Source of the DNA: Alphaproteobacteria bacterium
GTDB taxonomy: Bacteria > Pseudomonadota > Alphaproteobacteria > Rs-D84
Reading direction: 5' to 3'
DNA length: 64,000 nucleotides
NCBI GenBank assembly: GCA_031555055.1
Contig: JAVBUT010000006.1
Location: 3,886-67,885 of the forward strand
Part shown: positions 14,430 through 33,030 of the stretch, piece after piece
Layout of the letters: every line of letters begins with the position of its first letter
Position numbering within the stretch: the stretch's first letter is position 1
Notes under the pieces: generated by a model
Seen by the model: the letters and a program-made list of their open reading frames with translations, nothing else
Databases searched by the model: none
Told to the model about the DNA's origin: nothing
Made by a program: the position numbers and the translations under genes

Positions 14430-15041
14430 TCAGTCCGAATAATTGCACGTCGAACCATATCTGTAATAACCATCGTTATTTTCAAAGGTATAGGTTGACG
14501 GCATAAAGCATGCGGTCTGGGGCATCAAACCTTCGGATACGGGCACAGGGACTGTTTCTCCGCATCTTTGGATACCATCCTTGTCGGTAAAACAAAGACA
14601 CCGGTTGCATACCGGTCCACCGGTATTCTGGACTTCCCACCAGTATCCAGCATGACATCTGTAATCATATATGCTGATACATTCGCATGTAATTGGATTC
14701 TGGTACGAGTATTCTATACGGTCATAATGCTTGGCGGGTTTTGGTGTCCAATTCCCCTCCAGCGTCAGGCATGGTCCACAAGGCTCAATCGGGCCGGAAC
14801 CACATCCCCTGGACGACGGGACACACACGCATTCCCCATTGCAATCCATCGCAACACATTCATCGGAACCGGATGCCGACATGCATTCCGAATCTGACCA
14901 TATCGCTACACCGCCACCGGAACTGCACGCCCCCCCAGGCGTAATTCCCAAGAACGCGCATGATACCGCATGTGCACCGCCGGTGACACAAAACGCGCAA
15001 CACAGCGCAACAAACATGAAAATCTTTTGGATAATTGGCAT
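14430..15041 (-). CDS. small cysteine-rich secreted protein
   Basis: Signal peptide MPIIQKIFMFVALCCAFCVTGGAHA. Many Cys. CECISIYDYRCHAGYWW...CNRC. Paralog of 15197-15787. Confidence 0.7.
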   Translation of the reverse strand: MPIIQKIFMFVALCCAFCVTGGAHAVSCAFLGITPGGACSSGGGVAIWSDSECMSASGSDECVAMDCNGECVCVPSSRGCGSGPIEPCGPCLTLEGNWTPKPAKHYDRIEYSYQNPITCECISIYDYRCHAGYWWEVQNTGGPVCNRCLCFTDKDGIQRCGETVPVPVSEGLMPQTACFMPSTYTFENNDGYYRYGSTCNYSD

Positions 15042-15196: not shown

Positions 15197-15787
15197 ATGT
15201 TTCATAAAAAAACTCTTTTATTGTTCTTTTGCGCGCTGATTGCGATCGGCACCACCACGGATGCGAATGCGGCGCTATGCTCTTACTATGGTTTATTACA
15301 GGGGTCTGATTGCACATTTTTTGTGGACAATCGCGTGGAAAATCAATGTTTTGGCATGGATTGCCGTTATGAAAATTGCAATGGCCAGTGCACATGTGTG
15401 GAAACCAGTAACAGTTGCGGCGGTTTTTTGTGTCCCGAATGCCCACGGGTATATGGCTGGCAGTCGGTTCCATCCATGCATTTTGATCGAAATGAACTTA
15501 ACGTACTCCAGGATATAGTTACATGCGAATGCACATACGAATATGAATACAGATGTCACGCTGGTTATTATCACAACGGCTCTTATGACTTTTTAATACA
15601 GCCCGGTTGCGTGCAATGCCCAAGCATGACCGATGTCAACAATTTCGTACGTTATGGGAATTCCACACCTGTTATTCTTCGCAACACCTCGCAATCCGTA
15701 TTGGATTGCTATATGTCCAGCACGTATAATTTCAAGGACACCCCTGGGACCTATCACTTTACCAATAACTGTAACGCAACACCATAA
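15197..15787 (+). CDS. small cysteine-rich secreted protein (divergent paralog)
   Basis: Signal peptide MFHKKTLLLFFCALIAIGTTTDANA. CECTYEYEYRCHAGYYH...CVQCPS. C-terminal CYMSSTYNFKD matches CFMPSTYTFEN of the neighbour. Confidence 0.7.
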   Translation: MFHKKTLLLFFCALIAIGTTTDANAALCSYYGLLQGSDCTFFVDNRVENQCFGMDCRYENCNGQCTCVETSNSCGGFLCPECPRVYGWQSVPSMHFDRNELNVLQDIVTCECTYEYEYRCHAGYYHNGSYDFLIQPGCVQCPSMTDVNNFVRYGNSTPVILRNTSQSVLDCYMSSTYNFKDTPGTYHFTNNCNATP

Positions 15788-15859: not shown

Positions 15860-15887
15860 TTGACAAATTATTTTTATGTATTATATT
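15860..15887 (+). promoter_or_regulatory. promoter-like TTGACA-N16-TATATT upstream of or overlapping the S8 autotransporter start
   Basis: ACTTGACAAATTATTTTTATGTATTATATT. If used, the mRNA would be nearly leaderless at ATG 15894. Confidence 0.4.
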
Positions 15888-15893
15888 TTCAGC

Positions 15894-17759
15894 ATGAGAA
15901 TGGTATCCAAGATTTTAATCGGGATTTTATGCGCGACCGTGTCATTGGCGCCCTGCTTTGCCGCGGATAAAAAATGCAATAATCGAGCATACCGGCAAAA
16001 CAATCCATCCAAATGTAAAACTGCTGAAAAAGCCGACGATTTATGGACGATCGCGCTGGTCGGCGGCGCGGCTGTTGCCGGCGCCGGGATTGCTTTGGCC
16101 GCAATGTCCGCCGGCGGCAACGACGGTTCCACAACCGGTTCCGCACCGGGATCAACTGGAAAAAGAATCCTGGTGCCGACAATGAAAATCTATGACACCG
16201 TCGGATATACGGACCCGAACTTGCTGGCGACGGCAATGTCCGCGACCGAATATGGCAAAAATCTGGAACACTATAACGAAATCCGACTGGCATATTCGCT
16301 GGCACGCGGCTTTACCGGAAAAAATTCTACCATTGCAGTTTTGGATACCGGCGACTACAGCTGGCATGGGACCGCGGTCGCAAATATCGCCGGCAACGCG
16401 ATTGCACCAAACGCCACAATAAATTCTTATAAAATCGTAAATGACAACGGCGACTTTTTATCATACGCCAAAATCGGCGAAATTATCGAATCGGAAAAAA
16501 ACGCGAAGATATTTAATTCCAGCTGGGGCATAACGACATACAACAATATCAGCGCCGCCAGCGTAAAAAGCCGCACGCAATTAGTGAATCTTACCAGCGC
16601 GAACTTTATAGATAATATAACGAGCGCCGCCACCGCACGCGATGCGATATTCGTATGGTCTGCCGGCAACGACGGAACCAAACAGAGCAACGCGTTGAGC
16701 GCTATGGGAAAAATCATTCCGGAATTGTCCGGTCATTTTATAAACGTTGTCGCATGGGATACAGCAACAGGCGAATTGGCCGAATACAGCAACGCCTGTG
16801 GCGTGACCCAGTTGTACTGTATAACCGCCCCCGGGTCCGATGTAAACATTGGCAGATTCGAAGTCAGCGGAACCAGCTTTGCCGCGCCGATGGTCGCCGG
16901 CGCCGTCGCCGTTATATCCGAAGCATTTCCATACATGACCGCGAATGAAATCACACAGTTGATATTCACAACCGCGCGCGATCTGGGGGCGGACGGAAAT
17001 GATGAAATTTACGGCTGGGGCATGCTGGACCTGGAACGCGCGACGCGCCCGGTGGGCGCCGCACTGGTACCATTGGGCGATGGCATGACGCCGCTGCGCA
17101 TGGCCAGCGCCAGCGGAACCATGGCGCGAAAATTGAAATCTGCAAATCTGCAGTTTGCATTTTTTGACAGCTTTGGCCGCGCGTTTACCGCGAACCTGAA
17201 CGACAATATTTCATTCACAGAACGCGGCCGCGGATTCGATCGTCTGCGTGCGGACGATCCGCGTGTCACATTCGCAGCGGGCAATTTCGAATTCGGATTT
17301 TCAAATGAAAACCTGCTGGTGGGCGACGGATTTTTACAAACGGATCAGAACAATCTGATCAGCTTTGTCGGATTGAAAAACGAATTCAATATCGGTGAAA
17401 TTAGCTTTTTCCAAAACGCGCGCGTCGGATTTTCCGCGCCGCGCGCGGCGTCCGAATCGTTTATATCCGGACTGTCGAACATATACAGCGCGTCTGCGAA
17501 ATTCGGCGCTGCCTGGCATGATTGGACACTTTCGATTTCAACACCGGAAACGATTATCGGTGGCGCCATGAATATGAATCTGCCGTACGCGCGCGCGGCA
17601 AATGGCGACATATTGTTTGCGAATTACGCCATTGATTTGGCGGAACGCCCGGCGCTGGAATATTCTATAAAGTACAAATTTTTGACCACATCGTTCATCG
17701 ACAATCCATTAACGCGCGACGAATTTTTCATAATGGCCAAGACAAAAATCGCATTTTAA
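15894..17759 (+). CDS. S8 (subtilisin-family) peptidase with autotransporter-like C-terminal beta-barrel
   Basis: AVLDTGD (Asp), SWHGTAVANIAG (His), SAGNDG (Asn), SGTSFAAPMVAG (Ser). The C-terminal about 250 aa are beta-strand-like and end in Phe (KTKIAF). Start uncertain (15876, 15894 or 15900). Confidence 0.8.
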   Translation: MRMVSKILIGILCATVSLAPCFAADKKCNNRAYRQNNPSKCKTAEKADDLWTIALVGGAAVAGAGIALAAMSAGGNDGSTTGSAPGSTGKRILVPTMKIYDTVGYTDPNLLATAMSATEYGKNLEHYNEIRLAYSLARGFTGKNSTIAVLDTGDYSWHGTAVANIAGNAIAPNATINSYKIVNDNGDFLSYAKIGEIIESEKNAKIFNSSWGITTYNNISAASVKSRTQLVNLTSANFIDNITSAATARDAIFVWSAGNDGTKQSNALSAMGKIIPELSGHFINVVAWDTATGELAEYSNACGVTQLYCITAPGSDVNIGRFEVSGTSFAAPMVAGAVAVISEAFPYMTANEITQLIFTTARDLGADGNDEIYGWGMLDLERATRPVGAALVPLGDGMTPLRMASASGTMARKLKSANLQFAFFDSFGRAFTANLNDNISFTERGRGFDRLRADDPRVTFAAGNFEFGFSNENLLVGDGFLQTDQNNLISFVGLKNEFNIGEISFFQNARVGFSAPRAASESFISGLSNIYSASAKFGAAWHDWTLSISTPETIIGGAMNMNLPYARAANGDILFANYAIDLAERPALEYSIKYKFLTTSFIDNPLTRDEFFIMAKTKIAF

Positions 17760-17787
17760 AAAACGCCCAGACGGGGCGTTTTTTTTA
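17758..17787. terminator. bidirectional terminator hairpin; left copy of the duplicated flank of the XRE/leader module
   Basis: AAAAAACGCCCAGACGGGGCGTTTTTTTT. Confidence 0.65.
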
Positions 17788-17996: not shown

Positions 17997-18162
17997 AAAA
18001 AAATTACCGCCGTGATGAAGGGCGGTTGGGAGTTAAGACCTATACGAGTATAGTTCGCATATTCGGGCAAGCCCTTATTTTGCAACCTCCCAACCATGCG
18101 GTTTACACATTTGGGCATTCTCGTCGAGGGTCTTATACCTCACATCGGCAATCATCCGATGC
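17997..18162 (-). ncRNA. conserved structured leader or sRNA with intrinsic terminator, copy A (ends approximate)
   Basis: About 75 percent identical by eye to 30274-30429, with compensatory changes in stems. Ends in ACCGCCC-loop-GGCGGT plus a U-run directly before the RBS of the XRE gene. Confidence 0.55.
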
Positions 18163-18168
18163 AGGTAT

Positions 18169-18197
18169 ATTGTATATCATAATTTTTACAATTTCTA
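18169..18197 (-). promoter_or_regulatory. putative promoter of leader RNA copy A (TAGAAA-N17-TACAAT)
   Basis: The sequence block TAGAAATTgTAAAAATTATGATATACAAT is conserved with copy B. Confidence 0.45.
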
Positions 18198-19088: not shown

Positions 19089-19943
19089 TTATTTCAAGTC
19101 AAACGAAGTTATGTAATTGAAAGATATCCCCAGGATCATATTGCTGCCGTACACATCTGCTTCGCGGGATTTAGCCAGACGATACTGGACATATGGGCCC
19201 AAAGTGAAACTGCCCCACAGGTTGGTATCCAGGCGCAAAACCGCAGACAGATCGCGTTCCAAATCCGTGCCGACATAATTCGAATAAGATAAATATTCGC
19301 GGTAATATCCGTTGGTGGATAATTTGACGCCTTCCCTTATTTCGTATTCCAGGCGCCATCCCAGTTCCGCCGCCAGCTTGTTAACCACGTTGTCAGAATA
19401 CGTGAAATCATATTCGTATACTGCGGACACATGCAGGTCTTTGACGATATCGTGATCGAATACAGCCAGACCGGTGTTTGCGCGCGCGATGTTTTGGCGT
19501 GGCGCATCACCGTTCGCAGTAAATTCCGTTTCATACTGGCCGCGTCCGGTCGGACCGAACTTAAACCCGGACGATTCCCAGCATGCGTACGACAGATCAC
19601 TGGAAAGCAAAATCTTGTCCGCATTTTCATTCGATGTGGCCACATCGTTATAAGGCTGCAGCTTTGTACGGCCGTATTCCATAAACACGCTGTTGTCCCA
19701 ATCCAGTCGTCCATGCTGGTATTCCAGCGCGACATCGGTCACGCCTTTGATAAATTCCTGGTTTGCCGCGGTCAGTGCAGCAATCGGCGAATCGGAATAT
19801 TCGGCCGCGTTCTGGACACTGGTCTGGGACAAGTCCAGCCCGATACGGCGAATATTCAGAACCAGTCCGGATGTTTGTGATTCTTCGGCGAACGCGCAAA
19901 CCGGCATTGCCATCGCGATTGCGATCAGTGATATTTTTTTCAA
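19089..19943 (-). CDS. putative outer-membrane beta-barrel protein
   Basis: Signal peptide MKKISLIAIAMAMPVCAFA. Alternating-hydrophobicity strands. Aromatic-rich C-terminus. Confidence 0.55.
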   Translation of the reverse strand: MKKISLIAIAMAMPVCAFAEESQTSGLVLNIRRIGLDLSQTSVQNAAEYSDSPIAALTAANQEFIKGVTDVALEYQHGRLDWDNSVFMEYGRTKLQPYNDVATSNENADKILLSSDLSYACWESSGFKFGPTGRGQYETEFTANGDAPRQNIARANTGLAVFDHDIVKDLHVSAVYEYDFTYSDNVVNKLAAELGWRLEYEIREGVKLSTNGYYREYLSYSNYVGTDLERDLSAVLRLDTNLWGSFTLGPYVQYRLAKSREADVYGSNMILGISFNYITSFDLK

Positions 19944-20912: not shown

Positions 20913-22433
20913 TTAAAACTTTGCGTTAAAGCCGACGCGGATTCCCAACGATTTATAGAAAGAATTCACTTCGCCGGATGTGCTGCATACCCATCCCGGA
21001 CATTCCGTCTCTATATTTTTGATATTGATTGCGGTTTGGTTTCCGGTATCCGGGTCCAGCATGTCGGCTTCGGTGAATCCATTGTCCAGCCATTCTTCCA
21101 GGATTGTGTCGTACACACCCATATAGAAGCCTTCGTTCAGATACGTTTTCGCGTCCGCATCGCTGACGCTGTAGTAATTGTATGTCATGCCCACCGTCAG
21201 CATTATGCTGTTCGTTATCGCGGTTGACCAATTTCCGGACAAACCAAAGTTTATTGCGGAACCGATACCTGCGGAATCTTCGATGCTTTTCGGGTGTTGC
21301 CAATCAAAGCGGTACGGCTGATCACCGATTGCCTCGTATCCGGGCAACCCCAGTTCAACGCGTGCACCCACGGAATTGTTCTGGTTAATATCATAAACCA
21401 TATCCAATGCCAAATAAGGACCAGACCACGTCACTTCATACGAATGGCTGGTACCGGGCTGTTGAAAATAATAAGTATCGCCGGTGTCAATGCTTTCGGC
21501 GTCATTGCCGACCGTCATTTCATCAGTTATGGAATCACGCCAAATTATCTGCTGAACCGTTGTACCGTTTGGCCCAGGATAGTTTACAATGATAGCCGGA
21601 TCGCATTGCATTTCATCGCTGTCGGGAACGCTGAAACACGCGGACGTCGCAAACGACAACCCGTAATTCTTATCCGTCTTTAATTTATAATTAAAGTGCC
21701 GGTAACCGATCGACGGTGTGATTCTGGTATTGCCCAGCTTGAAAAAATCCGTCAATCCAAATCCGACGTTAAAGCCGAACATGCTGCCGCCGCCGGTTGT
21801 CCCAACAGACAGCGCCTGGCCGAATTCGTTTCCGATCACGGTGTCGGTGGCTTCATCGATCCATTGCGTTATAAAGTATCCGCCGTTGGTTATGTCATCA
21901 TCGACCATGTATGATTCCGCGCCTTGGAATCCGAATTTCACCCCGGCGTCCACCTGCATTTTGGTATTTCCACCGAACACGTAGCCTGCGCCGATGTCAA
22001 AGACATTCCAAGCGATATTGTCATAGTGCAATATGCTGCCGGATTGGTTCATATCGAATTGCCATTGGGCGGTTTCATACGAATAACCACCGTTCAGATA
22101 AAAGCCCGACTGGGTTCCGGAATTCGGCTGTTTCTGCTGACCTTGCTGTTGCTGGCCACGCTGTTGGGGCTGACCCTGCTGCTGTTGCTGGTACGGCGAA
22201 TATCTTGAATAGTCAGAATCCGTATAGTTTCCGGCACGCGGCTGGGCTGTTGCGGGCTGGGCGTATCTTTGTGGCGTGTATCCGGTTTGAGAATATCCGG
22301 TCCGAACGTATCCTGGCTGGGCATAGGTATTCTGCGGCGACTGGTACCCACCGGTATAATAAGTTCCGGCCGCGTCGGCATAACCAATTCCGCCCAGTGC
22401 GCACAATACAGCAAACAAAGATATTTTCTTCAT
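20913..22433 (-). CDS. outer-membrane beta-barrel protein with Tyr/Gln/Pro-rich N-terminal low-complexity region
   Basis: Signal peptide. QQQQQGQPQQRGQQQQGQQKQ tract. C-terminal beta strands ending GIRVGFNAKF (terminal Phe). Confidence 0.7.
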   Translation of the reverse strand: MKKISLFAVLCALGGIGYADAAGTYYTGGYQSPQNTYAQPGYVRTGYSQTGYTPQRYAQPATAQPRAGNYTDSDYSRYSPYQQQQQGQPQQRGQQQQGQQKQPNSGTQSGFYLNGGYSYETAQWQFDMNQSGSILHYDNIAWNVFDIGAGYVFGGNTKMQVDAGVKFGFQGAESYMVDDDITNGGYFITQWIDEATDTVIGNEFGQALSVGTTGGGSMFGFNVGFGLTDFFKLGNTRITPSIGYRHFNYKLKTDKNYGLSFATSACFSVPDSDEMQCDPAIIVNYPGPNGTTVQQIIWRDSITDEMTVGNDAESIDTGDTYYFQQPGTSHSYEVTWSGPYLALDMVYDINQNNSVGARVELGLPGYEAIGDQPYRFDWQHPKSIEDSAGIGSAINFGLSGNWSTAITNSIMLTVGMTYNYYSVSDADAKTYLNEGFYMGVYDTILEEWLDNGFTEADMLDPDTGNQTAINIKNIETECPGWVCSTSGEVNSFYKSLGIRVGFNAKF

Positions 22434-22558: not shown

Positions 22559-22892
22559 CGCCAATTTTCACCGAAGCGAAGCAAGGGCTGAAAATTGAGC
22601 GTCACGGCGTAGCGCAGCGAAGACGGATGGTAGACACATTTTTATTGCGAGTATGGCGGAATTGGTAGACGCGCTGCCTTGAGGTGGCAGTGGAGCAATC
22701 CATAGGAGTTCGAGTCTCCTTACTCGCACCATATTTATTCATACATCTATGTTATCGGGATTTTATCCATCGCCGTCATACCGGCGAACGCCGGTAACCA
22801 GCAGTATGAAATTTAGTTTTAATAATACTGGACCCCGGCCTACGCCGGGGCGCTCAATTTTCAGCCCTCGCTACGCTCGGTGAAAATTGGCG
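22559..22892. mobile_element. insert bounded by inverted 42/43-nt hairpin repeats and carrying the intact tRNA-Leu
   Basis: CGCCAATTTTCACCGAAGCGAAGCAAGGGCTGAAAATTGAGCG (22559-22601) matches the reverse complement of 22851-22892 with 1 indel and 2 mismatches. Each arm is itself a CAATTTTCA/TGAAAATTG hairpin. Confidence 0.5.
22647..22731 (+). tRNA. tRNA-Leu (anticodon GAG), class II with long variable arm, encoded CCA
   Basis: Hand fold: GCGAGTA/TACTCGC acceptor, GCG-GAATTGGTAGA-CGC D arm, CTGCC-TTGAGGT-GGCAG anticodon arm, AGGAG-TTCGAGT-CTCCT T arm, then A-CCA. Confidence 0.93.
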
Positions 22893-30238: not shown

Positions 30239-30267
30239 TAGAAATTTTGAAAAATATGATATACAAT
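30239..30267 (+). promoter_or_regulatory. putative promoter of leader RNA copy B (TAGAAA-N17-TACAAT)
   Basis: Same conserved block as copy A (TAGAAATTTTGAAAAATATGATATACAAT). Confidence 0.45.
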
Positions 30268-30273
30268 GCGTGT

Positions 30274-30429
30274 GCACCGGATGATTACCGGTGTGAGGTG
30301 TTAGAACCTCTACAGGCAAACCCAACCAATGGTTGGGAGGCTGGTGGAATAAGGCTTTGCCGAATACACCGCACTATGCTTGTATAGTTCTAAACTCCCA
30401 ACCGCCCCTCATCATGGCGGTGTTTTTTT
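30274..30429 (+). ncRNA. conserved structured leader or sRNA with intrinsic terminator, copy B (ends approximate)
   Basis: Hairpins CACCGG-AUGAUUA-CCGGUG and GAGG-N8-CCUC. GGUUGGGAG is complementary to the downstream CUCCCAACC, which overlaps the 5' arm of the terminator ACCGCCCCUCAUCAUGGCGGU plus U7. AAAGGAGAG RBS and ATG follow at 30448. Confidence 0.55.
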
Positions 30430-30447
30430 AACAAAGGAGAGAAAAAA

Positions 30448-30660
30448 ATGCAAACCACAACAAATGGCAACAAACGTATCGGCGAATGCCTAAAAGACGC
30501 ACGCCGAACACTGGGCGTATCACGAATCGATCTGGCACGGCGCCTGCACTGCAGTAAAAAGGACATACTGAAATATGAAAACGGGGTGACGCGCATCCCG
30601 CTGGATTTTATAACCGACTTTTTTTGCGCCGGCATACGATCAGAGATAAAACCTAAATAA
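30448..30660 (+). CDS. mini XRE-family HTH protein (70 aa), copy B
   Basis: IGECLKDARRTLGVSRIDLARRLHCSKKDILKYENGVTRIP is an HTH_3 pattern. Confidence 0.75.
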   Translation: MQTTTNGNKRIGECLKDARRTLGVSRIDLARRLHCSKKDILKYENGVTRIPLDFITDFFCAGIRSEIKPK

Positions 30661-30688
30661 AAAATCCCGCAATCGCGGGATTTTTTTT
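30661..30688. terminator. bidirectional terminator AAAATCCCGCAATCGCGGGATTTTTTTT
   Basis: Between the convergent XRE copy B and dsbA-like genes. Closely related to the 33002/34061 hairpins. Confidence 0.65.
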
Positions 30689-30705
30689 AATCGAAACCAA
30701 AGCAA

Positions 30706-31738: not shown

Positions 31739-32980
31739 TTACAACATCTGGCGCGCCACCGGCAGAGTGATTCCGTGCTGTTCGCACGCACGTTCCAAAA
31801 ACTTTTTCAGCACATCCAGCGTCAGCGGTAATTTATGCAGCCTGTTTAAATACGGCGCGGCGCATTCGTCGCAAACGGCGCGTCCGGTCTTTGGCGACAG
31901 ATAATTCAAGCTATCTTTCTTGCCGCACCCGGAACAGCGCGACATATCCAAAGCATATCCCAAATCCGCCAGAAAATTTATTTCCCACGAAAGATACAGA
32001 TTTTTTTTATCATCCTGACTCTGTCGCGTCTCCCCCTGCTTGCGGGGGGAGTGGTCGCAAAGCGACCGAGGGGGGTGATTATCAATAACTTCTTTGGGAT
32101 AAAAATTCTGCAATGGTGGGATTTCATTTTCATGCGTTAAATAATAGTAAATATTATCCAGAACATTTTGCAAGTCCCTGATCACAGCGTCATTCCAAAA
32201 ACGAATTGTGCGATATCCGGAATCCTGCAAGAATTTATCGCGCACAGCATCGTGATAAATTTGTTGTTGTTCTCCATGATGTTCACCATCTAATTCAACG
32301 ATTAATTTTGTTTTTCTGTTTACAAAATCCGCAATATAGTTTCCGATCGGCATCTGTTTTACAAAATCAAACCCGCCGTTTGATCCGCTTAAATTTTTCC
32401 ACAGAATCGCTTCGTGTTTTGTTAGGTTTTTCCGTAATGATTTTGCAAAGACTTGTGCCTGGGGCGCACAACGGTTCACCCCCCTCGCCCACTCTGTGGG
32501 CGCTCCCCCCGCAAGCGGGGTGAGACGTGCTTTTGGTCCAAGCATATCAAACACTCCGTCGCATCTCCCCCCGCTTGCGGGGGGAGTGGTCGCAAAGCGA
32601 CCGAGGGGGGTGACAGCCAAACTGTGCAGTAAATTTTTCGTGCGTATAAACAGTGTCTCGTACTTTTCGCGTTCCGGCAATAATGCCGCGATCAGTGCGA
32701 ACATCGAATTCATTATCCCCAGCGTCCGCGGGTCAGACATCAGCGGCGCAGCCATGTTTTTTTCCGCTTCCCAGTGAAACGCCCCCAGTTGCGAATCCAG
32801 TCGCGCGTTCCATGACACGCCACCCACCTGGCCCACCAGCGGTTTGTTTTTCCGGGCAACTTGGGCACCCGTCAGCATGCCGGTCATGACGCCATAATCA
32901 TGTGTAAAAATCACGCCGATCGAATCGCGTTCGCCGAACGGCCGCAAAGCAATCAAAATTCCCGTCGATTCCAGTTTCAT
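31739..32980 (-). CDS. recO: DNA repair protein RecO carrying a 199-codon in-frame insertion
   Basis: N-terminal OB fold MKLESTGILIALRPFGERD. C-terminal Zn finger MSRCSGCG...YLSPKTGRAVCDEC. The two halves are separated by 32018-32614 (see the mobile_element feature). Confidence 0.8.
   Translation of the reverse strand: MKLESTGILIALRPFGERDSIGVIFTHDYGVMTGMLTGAQVARKNKPLVGQVGGVSWNARLDSQLGAFHWEAEKNMAAPLMSDPRTLGIMNSMFALIAALLPEREKYETLFIRTKNLLHSLAVTPLGRFATTPPASGGRCDGVFDMLGPKARLTPLAGGAPTEWARGVNRCAPQAQVFAKSLRKNLTKHEAILWKNLSGSNGGFDFVKQMPIGNYIADFVNRKTKLIVELDGEHHGEQQQIYHDAVRDKFLQDSGYRTIRFWNDAVIRDLQNVLDNIYYYLTHENEIPPLQNFYPKEVIDNHPPRSLCDHSPRKQGETRQSQDDKKNLYLSWEINFLADLGYALDMSRCSGCGKKDSLNYLSPKTGRAVCDECAAPYLNRLHKLPLTLDVLKKFLERACEQHGITLPVARQML
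32018..32614 (-). mobile_element. DUF559 (Vsr-like endonuclease fold) module flanked by GC-rich palindromic elements, translated in frame inside recO
   Basis: Core LRKNLTKHEAILWKNL...GNYIADFVNRKTKLIVELDGEHHGEQQQIYHDAVRDKFLQDSGYRTIRFWNDAV is the DUF559 pattern. It is bounded by copies of TCxCCCCGCTTGCGGGGGGAG-hairpin-GAGGGGGGTGA at 32019-32082, 32476-32527 (inverted) and 32556-32614. Length 597 bp, or 199 codons. Confidence 0.65.
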
Positions 32981-33001
32981 AGGATAAAGTATACAGCAAA
33001 T

Positions 33002-33030
33002 AAAAAAATCCCGCAACGCGGGATTTTTTT
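33002..33030. terminator. AAAAAAATCCCGCAACGCGGGATTTTTTT hairpin, copy 1 (3' of the orphan gene, upstream of recO)
   Basis: The 29-bp core is identical to 34061-34090. Confidence 0.7.

Follow-up and report, generated by a model that had tools for sequence, protein, structure and literature searches.

A chromosomal leader RNA resembling c4 and sRNA-Xcc1, with covarying address boxes and a candidate attenuator role, upstream of small regulator genes in Alphaproteobacteria

The c4 antisense RNA of phage P1 is processed from a longer precursor by RNase P, and the plasmids pT181 and pIP501/pAMbeta1 use antisense RNAs to attenuate transcription of their replication genes. Here we compare these and related systems with a structured leader RNA present in at least two copies within 12 kb in a 64,000-nucleotide stretch of DNA from an Alphaproteobacteria bacterium (assembly GCA_031555055.1, contig JAVBUT010000006.1, positions 3,886 to 67,885; this whole stretch is called the window below). 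Each copy lies in front of a small open reading frame (ORF) encoding a helix-turn-helix (HTH) protein, here called mini-XRE. In phage P1, c4 blocks the ribosome-binding site of icd/ant and sets the heteroimmunity of P1 and P7 (PMC12197685), and competition between two box pairs, a1b1 and a2b2, has been proposed (Weinberg 2010, PMC2864571). In some c4 RNAs the 3′ half of the closing helix, also named P1, overlaps the 5′ half of a terminator, which the authors took as a hint of cis-regulation (PMC2864571). In the annotated record of phage P1, a1 (TTGACAG) sits in a hairpin loop and is followed by b1 (GTTAGTGC) and the 77-nucleotide (nt) c4 RNA; then come a2 (TTGACAG) and b2 (GTTAGTGA), which overlaps the Shine-Dalgarno sequence (SD) of icd. 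Within c4, the strand between helices P3 and P1 (a′, CTGTCAA) and the P3 loop (b′, CACTAAC) are the complements of these boxes. The C4/isrK locus of phage P13374 has the same layout.

Two further RNA families are relevant. IsrK (Rfam RF01394) of Salmonella Gifsy-1 is a dual-function small and messenger RNA, for which experiments show cis pairing between a 5′ module and a segment farther downstream, with competition in trans by a short isoform (PMC4825925). sRNA-Xcc1 (RF02221; curated gathering score, 53 bits) is an integron-encoded small RNA (sRNA) first described in Xanthomonas campestris and common in temperate phages; it lies upstream of an ORF6N gene in APSE phages (PMC7313666) and upstream of symE in Xanthomonas integron cassettes (bioRxiv 2025.06.18.660453). 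According to a report on Xylella fastidiosa Temecula1, five tandem copies with a period of ~381 bp occupy positions 1,313,466 to 1,315,082 in a genomic island and are treated as vesicle-borne trans-acting sRNAs (PMC12189769). The ~381-bp spacing of the Xylella copies would fit repeated cassettes of RNA plus small gene. We found no link between sRNA-Xcc1 and c4 in the searchable literature; among the papers examined, those naming both only list them next to each other.

The RNAs of the window are, in all probability, a chromosomal variant of the c4/sRNA-Xcc1-type antisense RNA module. Two 5′ hairpins (P0 and S1) precede a three-way junction, in which helix P1 encloses helices P2 and P3 and a short strand (J3/1) joins P3 to P1. 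The loop of S1 contains an a1-like box complementary to J3/1 (a′-like), and the 5 to 9 nt following S1 contain a b1-like box complementary to the apex of P3 (b′-like). This is the anatomy of c4, in which a1 in a hairpin loop is followed by b1 and a three-way junction presents a′ as J3/1 and b′ as the P3 loop. An earlier note on this DNA, made from the sequence alone, had recorded that a GAGG-N8-CCUC hairpin (S1) is kept in both copies with differing loops. We recovered this hairpin and found that its loop differences covary with the strand between P3 and P1; the note had not identified the loop and the sequence after it as partners of J3/1 and the P3 apex. In the following four loci, the loop box and J3/1 are given first and the following box and P3 apex second.

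Copy A: UUAGAAC / GUUCUAA; UACAGGCA / UGCUUGUA
Copy B: UAAGACC / GGUCUUA; ACGAG / CUCGU
L151: UAAUAUC / GAUAUUA; UAACAGGU / ACCUGUUA
L088: UCGUUAC / GUAACGA; UCAAGG / CCUUGA

The other loci behave likewise: the boxes change from locus to locus, and the complementarity stays. This was assessed without an alignment by calculating the duplex energy of each P3 plus J3/1 segment against each leader module from 15 loci (a first version, with the GC-rich P2 flank included in the probes, was too noisy). Cognate pairs averaged −16.8 kcal/mol versus −6.75 kcal/mol (standard deviation, 3.3) for non-cognate pairs, and the cognate partner was the best one in 13 of 15 loci (permutation p < 5e-6). Crossed pairings between the window copies are weak (−6.2 and −7.8 kcal/mol, versus −16.8 and −16.0 kcal/mol for the cognate ones), so neither copy matches the other. 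Column counts in an alignment of 12 loci, leaving out P2, which MAFFT misaligned, gave the same picture. The a1:a′ helix was 100% paired, with five of six pairs changed on both sides; 0 of 500 shuffles reached the observed values, and sliding the partners against each other reduced pairing to 33 to 52%. In a fixed register, the b1:b′ helix had six of eight pairs changed on both sides, compared with 0/4 at the base of P3, 0/3 in the terminator, and 2/9 in P1. Because the most variable parts of the RNA are thus boxes that coevolve with single-stranded elements of the junction, the pattern points to RNA-RNA recognition and not to a ligand pocket. The box sequences act as a locus-specific address, which by analogy could play the part that heteroimmunity specificity plays in P1 and P7 (PMC12197685). 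Since the boxes evolve faster than the other helices and the two copies are orthogonal, we argue that recognition also takes place in trans. The a1 box could pair either as an H-type pseudoknot or as an alternative long helix, judging from its position.

These data bear out the proposal in the earlier note that the element functions at the RNA level in the sense orientation: it is kept beyond this genome, and its covariation holds, with statistical support, once more copies are aligned. The box helices contain G-U pairs, which places the RNA on the sense strand. A DNA-level operator was considered and rejected: read from the opposite strand, the G-U pairs of S1, P0, and the b1:b′ helix would turn into C-A mismatches.

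The junction itself resembles sRNA-Xcc1. At curated gathering thresholds, an Rfam search of the whole window returned nothing at either leader. A permissive search placed sRNA-Xcc1 first for both copies, over the full length of the model (copy A, 37.3 bits, E = 6e-5; copy B, searched as 186 nt, 30.4 bits, E = 8.5e-4), so the statement in the earlier note that the RNA was not recognized as any Rfam family needs correction, with the limit that both scores are below threshold. True phage members score 80 to 86 bits (phage Aaphi23, Stx phage P13374, and Acinetobacter phage 4316) and lie ~40 nt upstream of anti-repressor or KilA-N genes on the same strand. The other alpha-type loci described below were not reported by the sRNA-Xcc1 model at E ≤ 0.5. 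Shared with sRNA-Xcc1 are (i) a 9-bp P1 enclosing P3 and a P2 with an AAUA/GAAUA internal loop; (ii) a J3/1 of 6 to 7 nt; (iii) a CCGCCC 3′ flank and a 3′ hairpin; (iv) a sense orientation immediately 5′ of a gene; and (v) a P3 loop and J3/1 that match upstream boxes, as seen in nine loci of the sRNA-Xcc1 type. The window type differs in that P0 and the box module are fused to the junction with no intervening terminator, box copies at the ribosome-binding site are missing, and the 3′ hairpin reaches into P1 and has a U tract behind it. Its setting differs as well: the loci lie in housekeeping regions of alphaproteobacterial chromosomes and precede mini-XRE or other small genes.

RNAalifold predicted P1 and P3 of the junction. 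P1 corresponds to a 9-nt complementary pair, GGUUGGGAG and CUCCCAACC, that had been pointed out in the earlier note; both segments are present, their pairing is supported, and they form the closing stem of the three-way junction. In the 12 aligned sequences, P1 was 100% paired with two compensatory pairs, both contributed by L164, and again none of 500 shuffles did as well. P2 ends in stable tetraloops, as in c4 (CUUG in copy B; UUCG or CUUG in several homologs).

In the window, the two paralogous cassettes lie on opposite strands (copy A, +; copy B, −), and each consists, in order, of a promoter-like site, a structured RNA of ~160 nt, a weak terminator, the small gene, and a strong terminator. 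Their elements are as follows.

30239 to 30267, + strand: copy A promoter-like site, with −35 TAGAAA at 30239-30244, a 17-nt spacer, and −10 TACAAT at 30262-30267 (scanner, 9/12 match)
30274 to 30429, + strand: copy A leader
30274 to 30294, + strand: copy A P0 hairpin at the 5′ end, GCACCGG-AUGAUUA-CCGGUGU
30295 to 30310, + strand: copy A S1 hairpin, GAGG-N8-CCUC, its loop holding the a1-like box UUAGAAC at 30301-30307
30311 to 30318, + strand: copy A b1-like box UACAGGCA, complementary to the P3 apex UGCUUGUA with two G-U pairs
30321 to 30327, + strand: copy A anti-P1 segment CCCAACC, able to pair as a local hairpin with GGUUGGG of the P1 5′ arm
30331 to 30403, + strand: copy A three-way-junction core, matching the full Rfam sRNA-Xcc1 model
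30331 to 30339, + strand: copy A P1 5′ arm
30340 to 30372, + strand: copy A P2, with the AAUAA/GAAUA internal loop
30374 to 30387, + strand: copy A P3, with the b′-like apex
30387 to 30393, + strand: copy A J3/1 (a′-like)
30395 to 30403, + strand: copy A P1 3′ arm
30401 to 30429, + strand: copy A weak intrinsic terminator, ACCGCC-(9-nt loop)-GGCGGU at 30401-30421 and U7 at 30423-30429
30434 to 30441, + strand: copy A SD, AAGGAGAG
30448 to 30660, + strand: copy A 70-aa XRE-type HTH ORF (Pfam HTH_31, 30.8 bits against a cutoff of 27)
30659 to 30686, both strands: copy A bidirectional terminator hairpin closing the cassette (scanner)
18169 to 18197, − strand: copy B promoter-like site, TAGAAA-N17-TACAAT (scanner)
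18162 to 17997, − strand: copy B leader
18120 to 18162, − strand: copy B 5′ domain, with P0 at 18162-18142 and S1 at 18141-18126
18135 to 18129, − strand: copy B a1-like box UAAGACC
18124 to 18120, − strand: copy B b1-like box ACGAG
18024 to 18095, − strand: copy B three-way-junction core, matching the full Rfam sRNA-Xcc1 model
18095 to 18087, − strand: copy B P1 5′ arm
18086 to 18054, − strand: copy B P2, with a CUUG tetraloop
18053 to 18040, − strand: copy B P3
18040 to 18034, − strand: copy B J3/1, GGUCUUA
18032 to 18024, − strand: copy B P1 3′ arm
17997 to 18026, − strand: copy B terminator, with the hairpin at 18026-18006 and U7 at 18003-17997
17990 to 17981, − strand: copy B SD
17979 to 17785, − strand: copy B 64-aa HTH ORF, aligning with other mini-XREs
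17758 to 17784: copy B bidirectional terminator 3′ of the HTH ORF (scanner)

The two aligned leaders of ~160 nt that the earlier note had described upstream of small HTH ORFs are present and 77% identical (76.8%, 119/155). Identity is likewise 77% in the promoter and falls to 47.7% (95/199) in the coding sequence and to 46% in the DNA 5′ of the promoter, so that the RNA is far better conserved than the protein-coding DNA. A search of the 64 kb with nhmmer returned exactly two copies of the leader (E = 1e-36 and 1e-38), and both fold more stably than shuffled sequences (z = −3.1 for copy A and −4.0 for copy B). The compensatory P0 stem (CACCGG/CCGGUG in one copy, CAUCGG/CCGAUG in the other) extends to the homologs: across 12 of them, three of six P0 pairs are changed on both sides. 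The shared TAGAAA-N17-TACAAT block was found by a promoter scanner in both copies, and the copy A RNA probably starts at the foot of P0, ~6 nt past the −10 box, as positions in the sequence suggest. Copy A neighbors polA/dsbA-like genes, and copy B neighbors a protease gene and a 247-aa gene without assigned function.

To extend the comparison beyond the window pair, we collected 13 further loci. Pattern scans of genome and metagenome collections with P1 fixed, sorted with nhmmer, gave loci of the alpha type (L019 from an Alphaproteobacteria metagenome-assembled genome [MAG], L022 from a Rickettsiales MAG, L137, L151, L045, L094, L064, and L088), intermediates (L090, L119, and L077), and the phage type (L016, L140, L133, and L115). 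Noise was high: ~20 of 24 genome matches and most of 120 metagenome matches were unrelated GC-rich hairpins or terminators. Because these scans held P1 fixed, its near-invariance in the sample is partly a product of how the loci were found, and we therefore added a sampling made without reference to the RNA. The 70-aa HTH protein used alone as a query returned only itself; a profile built from four mini-XRE proteins was needed, and it yielded four more proteins, with the RNA upstream of the gene in all four contigs (L160, L162, L163, and L164). A BLAST search with the leader against plasmids and phages returned nothing, the leader being too diverged for it, and when viral contigs were scanned with the P1 arms, no homolog came up; 10 matches were iteron-like or due to chance, and one was a collagen-like repeat.

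The homologs sit in housekeeping neighborhoods (uvrD/dnaQ, nth/pheT, ftsW/mraY, and ksgA); three of the loci come from one metagenome sample. A TATAAT-like box lies ~6 nt 5′ of P0 in 14/14 alpha-type loci. The genes downstream of these 14 encode XRE-type HTH proteins in 10 cases, Cys-rich proteins in 2, and small ORFs of no assigned function in 2. The link to mini-XRE genes drawn in the earlier note thus stands for 10 of the 14 loci and fails for the 4 that precede other small ORFs. Among the intermediates, L090 has a terminator-like hairpin after the boxes and no leader terminator; box-like sequences near its SD, visible by eye, did not stand out in the duplex test. The L077 junction pairs with its own upstream boxes at −15.7 kcal/mol, a value that 13 non-cognate leaders equal or better, whereas its close relative L119 matches its own boxes. 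L077 (positions 646-731 together with the upstream 170 nt; L093 is near-identical) resembles a recombinant whose upstream module has been replaced, a hint that modules move between addresses.

The same duplex calculation connects sRNA-Xcc1 to c4. In nine sRNA-Xcc1-type loci, boxes recur upstream in a hairpin-plus-terminator module (−19.0 versus −12.0 kcal/mol, p = 5e-5), and a second box pair abuts the SD of the next gene (−14.0 versus −10.2 kcal/mol, p < 5e-5), for example UUGAGAA-AUC-AACAGGAGG in L115. This second pair is a trait that we derived from the nine loci; the Rfam definition of the family does not include it. The alpha-type loci gave no cognate box signal downstream (−8.3 versus −8.2 kcal/mol, p = 0.40). 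The sensor is thus conserved and the output differs: occlusion of a ribosome-binding site in the phages versus an intrinsic terminator here. Relative to c4, the window RNAs share the overlap of the P1 3′ half with the terminator 5′ half noted above for some members, and they differ in having a P1 of 9 bp instead of ~17 bp and in lying outside any prophage. They also lack an a2/b2 pair at the ribosome-binding site, the icd and ant genes, and a terminator that would separate a1b1 from the RNA, and the C4 model scores them as no match. We therefore do not regard them as a new class. They are a variant of c4/sRNA-Xcc1, in which the novel features are the fused target mimic, the terminator output, the chromosomal alphaproteobacterial hosts, and the mini-XRE cargo.

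The terminator described in the earlier note (ACCGCC-loop-GGCGGU followed by U7) is present in copy A and overlaps the 9-nt P1 arm by ACC. A terminator occurs in 14/14 alpha-type loci, with a 5- to 6-bp stem, a 9- to 10-nt loop, a predicted ΔG of −7.9 to −10.2 kcal/mol (−9.6 for copy A and −9.8 for copy B), and a tract of T6-7 (T4 in L045); in all 14, the 3′ hairpin extends 2 to 3 bp into the P1 3′ arm. The ATG follows the start of the U tract by 18 to 28 nt in 13 alpha-type loci and by 49 nt in L088. Such a short gap (18 nt in copy A) would leave no room for a separate promoter, and the gene would be reached only by read-through. The generic layout of an intrinsic-terminator attenuator is accordingly in place, with the terminator between promoter and gene and an alternative pairing on its stem.

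Folding models, which were restricted to nested structures and ignored pseudoknots, agree with the alternative pairings that the earlier note had suspected around the terminator. In 10/10 alpha-type leaders, the minimum free energy (MFE) structure was a box-paired fold without P1, with 6 to 8 bp in a1:a′ and 5 to 11 bp in b1:b′; the best P1-containing structure was less stable by 7 to 17 kcal/mol. The full terminator was kept in 8/10 MFE folds. When the boxes were blocked, P1 formed completely (9/9) in 5/10 leaders, and the terminator fell to 0 to 4 bp in those five. Forcing P1 left 0 to 4 bp of the terminator in 10/10 leaders; the best P1-free fold keeps the full terminator. An anti-P1 segment, 1 to 5 nt before P1, was significant in 7/14 loci, one of them copy A. 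There the MFE fold includes it, with a duplex energy of −13.8 kcal/mol (z = −2.9 relative to shuffled linkers).

From these models, the leader RNA probably gates read-through into the small gene. The proposed sequence of events is as follows. The leader boxes would pair with a′ and b′ in cis, so that P1 cannot form; in many loci, the anti-P1 segment would then hold the P1 5′ arm. The terminator would form, a short RNA would be released, and the gene would be off. When the boxes are unavailable, the junction would close with P1, which would take away the foot of the terminator and allow polymerase to read into the gene. By analogy with c4 and IsrK, what occupies the boxes of the nascent leader may be another copy of the RNA that has lost its own leader by processing and acts in trans. 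Helix P1 followed by GCC bears what may be a weak likeness to an acceptor stem with a CCA-like tail. The anatomy, the resemblance to c4 and sRNA-Xcc1, the covariation, and the lack of boxes at the ribosome-binding site are observed, and we infer the sign of the switch, its trigger, and any processing. The whole picture, a self-pairing switch built on a c4/sRNA-Xcc1-type module, is one in which we place moderate confidence.

Several observations weigh against this picture. The leaderless trans form is hypothetical, and a short RNA of full length would pair with itself. A scan of the 64-kb window for trans targets returned, apart from the RNA's own leader and the opposite strand of both RNA genes, which is trivially complementary, nothing but G-U-rich chance duplexes. 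Neither copy reaches the sRNA-Xcc1 gathering score, and the C4 model (RF01695) gave no match at E ≤ 10 (601 nt for copy A and 186 nt for copy B). P1 is near-invariant in the sample, and its compensatory support within the subgroup comes from one sequence, L164. The anti-P1 segment falls short of significance in half of the 14 loci, is weak in copy B, and is absent from L064 and L088. The overlap between P1 and the terminator is only 2 to 4 nt; since P1 (9 bp) with a 3-bp hairpin and P1 (6 bp) with a 6-bp terminator have equal numbers of pairs, P1 may only modulate termination. Finally, a compact fold could hold P1 with both box helices as tertiary contacts, in which case the sign could be reversed or there might be no switch.

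The self-pairing switch has to be weighed first against a stand-alone, trans-acting sRNA of the c4 type, whose terminator would be constitutive, whose 5′ boxes would be a cis lid or processing substrate, and whose targets would lie elsewhere in the genome, with the small gene expressed by leakage and its link to the RNA historical. The c4 plus a1b1 architecture and the terminator in all 14 loci are what such an sRNA would have, and terminators of this kind might act merely constitutively (Weinberg 2010, PMC2864571). Hypervariable, orthogonal boxes likewise argue for recognition in trans, and the title of the original report on sRNA-Xcc1 describes it as trans-acting (Chen et al. 2011). However, no box pair was found beside any ribosome-binding site in the 64-kb window, nor downstream in any alpha-type locus. 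An irrelevant gene would also be hard to reconcile with a small ORF that has a good SD and no promoter of its own and always begins within 18 to 49 nt, or with the joint travel of RNA and gene into different housekeeping neighborhoods. We consider a stand-alone sRNA rather unlikely.

A second possibility is that the RNA has a single compact native fold and no switch, the box:J3/1 helix (an H-type pseudoknot with S1) and the box:P3-apex contact, perhaps with a loop-loop kiss, serving as tertiary staples of a scaffold or protein-binding RNA. The 4-bp S1, 2-nt spacer, and 6- to 7-bp loop helix have classical H-type pseudoknot geometry, and RNAalifold, run on the core, favors a complete P1 next to a hairpin of 3 bp. 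In addition, the P0 loop (GAUGA/GUGAU) is complementary to the 9-nt terminator loop (UCAUC/AUCAC) in the window copies (30281-30287 with 30411-30415 in copy A; 18155-18149 with 18016-18012 in copy B) and at the same positions in 12 homologs, with a few coordinated changes (GUGAUU/AAUCAC in L022, GUGAUG/CAUCAC in L137, and GUGAC/GUCAC in L045); the UGAU/AUCA core is conserved, with U-A replaced by C-G in two sequences. A kiss between the two loops may thus tie together the ends of the short RNA, but its covariation is weak, as 39/500 shuffles reach the observed pairing. The b1:b′ complementarity runs through the 3- to 5-nt P3 loop into both strands of the stem (in L064, 9 nt around a 3-nt loop) and therefore cannot coexist with an intact P3, and on geometric grounds the 1- to 2-nt link between P2 and P3 could not span the long helix formed at full box pairing. 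The boxes also evolve far faster than every other helix, as expected of specificity determinants and not of staples. A static fold is, on this evidence, improbable.

A riboswitch, one of the functions suggested in the earlier note, or a protein-sensing attenuator would turn the junction into an aptamer that binds a small molecule or the XRE protein, with P1 as the antiterminator. Conserved internal-loop nucleotides (AAUAA/GAAUA), the competition of P1 with the terminator foot, and the lack of an Rfam family above threshold are compatible with this. Yet the downstream genes are small regulators or peptides of no assigned function, not metabolic or transport genes, and they differ among loci, so that the XRE protein cannot be the feedback signal for all of them. 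The covarying boxes and the c4/sRNA-Xcc1 anatomy explain the conserved features without a ligand, and the close structural relatives act at the ribosome-binding sites of phage anti-repressor genes. We rate ligand or protein sensing as very improbable. Ribosome-mediated attenuation through a leader peptide would draw on an AUG that, at 30329 in copy A and at the corresponding position in copy B, overlaps the 5′ arm of P1. It has a negligible chance of being correct and is effectively refuted by the homologs, most of which lack the AUG (UUUUGG, CUACGG, CUUCGG, or AAAAGG precedes P1). The ORF has 7 codons in one window copy against 27 or more in its counterpart, and there is no conserved peptide; the earlier note had likewise remarked that the length of the leader ORF is not conserved.

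The self-pairing switch has further partial parallels in IsrK and in plasmid attenuators. As in IsrK, one promoter would give both a short terminated RNA and a read-through mRNA, and the 5′ module pairing in cis would produce an inactive fold; in phage P13374, the a1b1-like stretch ahead of the C4 RNA is matched by the isrK model. In IsrK, however, the terminator precedes the complementary segment, leaving the boxes of the short RNA free, whereas the window terminator follows it, and the output is translation of orf45/anrP and not termination. Phage P13374 (L013) carries two modules of the same design ~900 nt apart with differing box sequences: isrK plus C4 before a regulator gene (963-1210) and an isrK-like module plus sRNA-Xcc1 before antB (1900-2110). 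With pT181 and pIP501/pAMbeta1, the window RNAs would share an RNA-RNA loop contact with a nascent leader that decides a terminator ahead of a small regulatory gene; the specificity loops of the plasmids define incompatibility groups, as the boxes here would define addresses. In those plasmids the antisense RNA comes from the opposite strand and is fully complementary, whereas in the window the partners share strand and transcript and pair by two short boxes.

The window carries the c4-type sensor with a terminator as probable output in place of the translational one, much as riboswitch families swap expression platforms, and with a move from prophages to housekeeping regions of alphaproteobacterial chromosomes. 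sRNA-Xcc1, annotated in many phage and proteobacterial genomes, has been an orphan family, discussed as a virulence or vesicle-borne sRNA, and our data suggest a c4-like action. That its loci carry c4-style boxes, both upstream and where ribosomes bind the gene that follows (anti-repressors, KilA-N, and probably SymE), is possibly the more widely useful result. The two-box addresses are short, orthogonal, and diversified, with almost as many address pairs as loci among the 15, and could serve as a parts list for orthogonal RNA regulators. A broader generalization, which we offer tentatively and consider doubtful, is that host-associated Alphaproteobacteria carry several self-addressed switches per genome, each forming an insulated RNA-only loop in which the released short RNA, perhaps once its 5′ leader has been removed, returns in trans only to its own leader and flips it to read-through, so that each loop drives a mini-repressor or some other small protein. 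A phage immunity device would in that case have been domesticated as a chromosomal transcription-attenuation code, and sRNA-Xcc1 would generally be a c4-like repressor of the next gene (ant, kilA-N, symE).

Other features were noted in passing. Three contigs from Gammaproteobacteria/Woeseiaceae MAGs (L018, 7105-7176; L024, 1274-1345; L031, 629-700, − strand) share another conserved element, unrelated to the junction RNA, which consists of a long hairpin closed by GGUUGGGAG...CUCCCAACCGCC arms and preceded by a conserved AUUAUACGACUCU...CCUUAAUACAAGC block. In the window, a tRNA-Leu (GAG) at 22647-22731 (+) was the sole Rfam match above gathering threshold. A 425-aa ORF at 31739-33016 (−) contains, within 32017-32613, three copies of a GC-rich palindromic repeat of ~60 nt (32018-32078, 32476-32527 inverted, and 32553-32613; 81 to 95% identity), translated as "GRFATTPPASGG..."; the repeat resembles a mobile palindrome of the REP/RPE type that has entered a coding region. 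By eye only, the copies flank a segment resembling a DUF559-type endonuclease in an otherwise recO-like ORF. Divergent genes at 14430-15041 (−) and 15197-15787 (+) encode paralogous Cys-rich proteins of 203 and 196 aa with signal-peptide-like N termini and shared motifs such as YRCHAGY. Near this pair lie several large ORFs (15876-17759, 19089-19943, and 20913-22433) whose products may resemble beta-barrel or autotransporter proteins.

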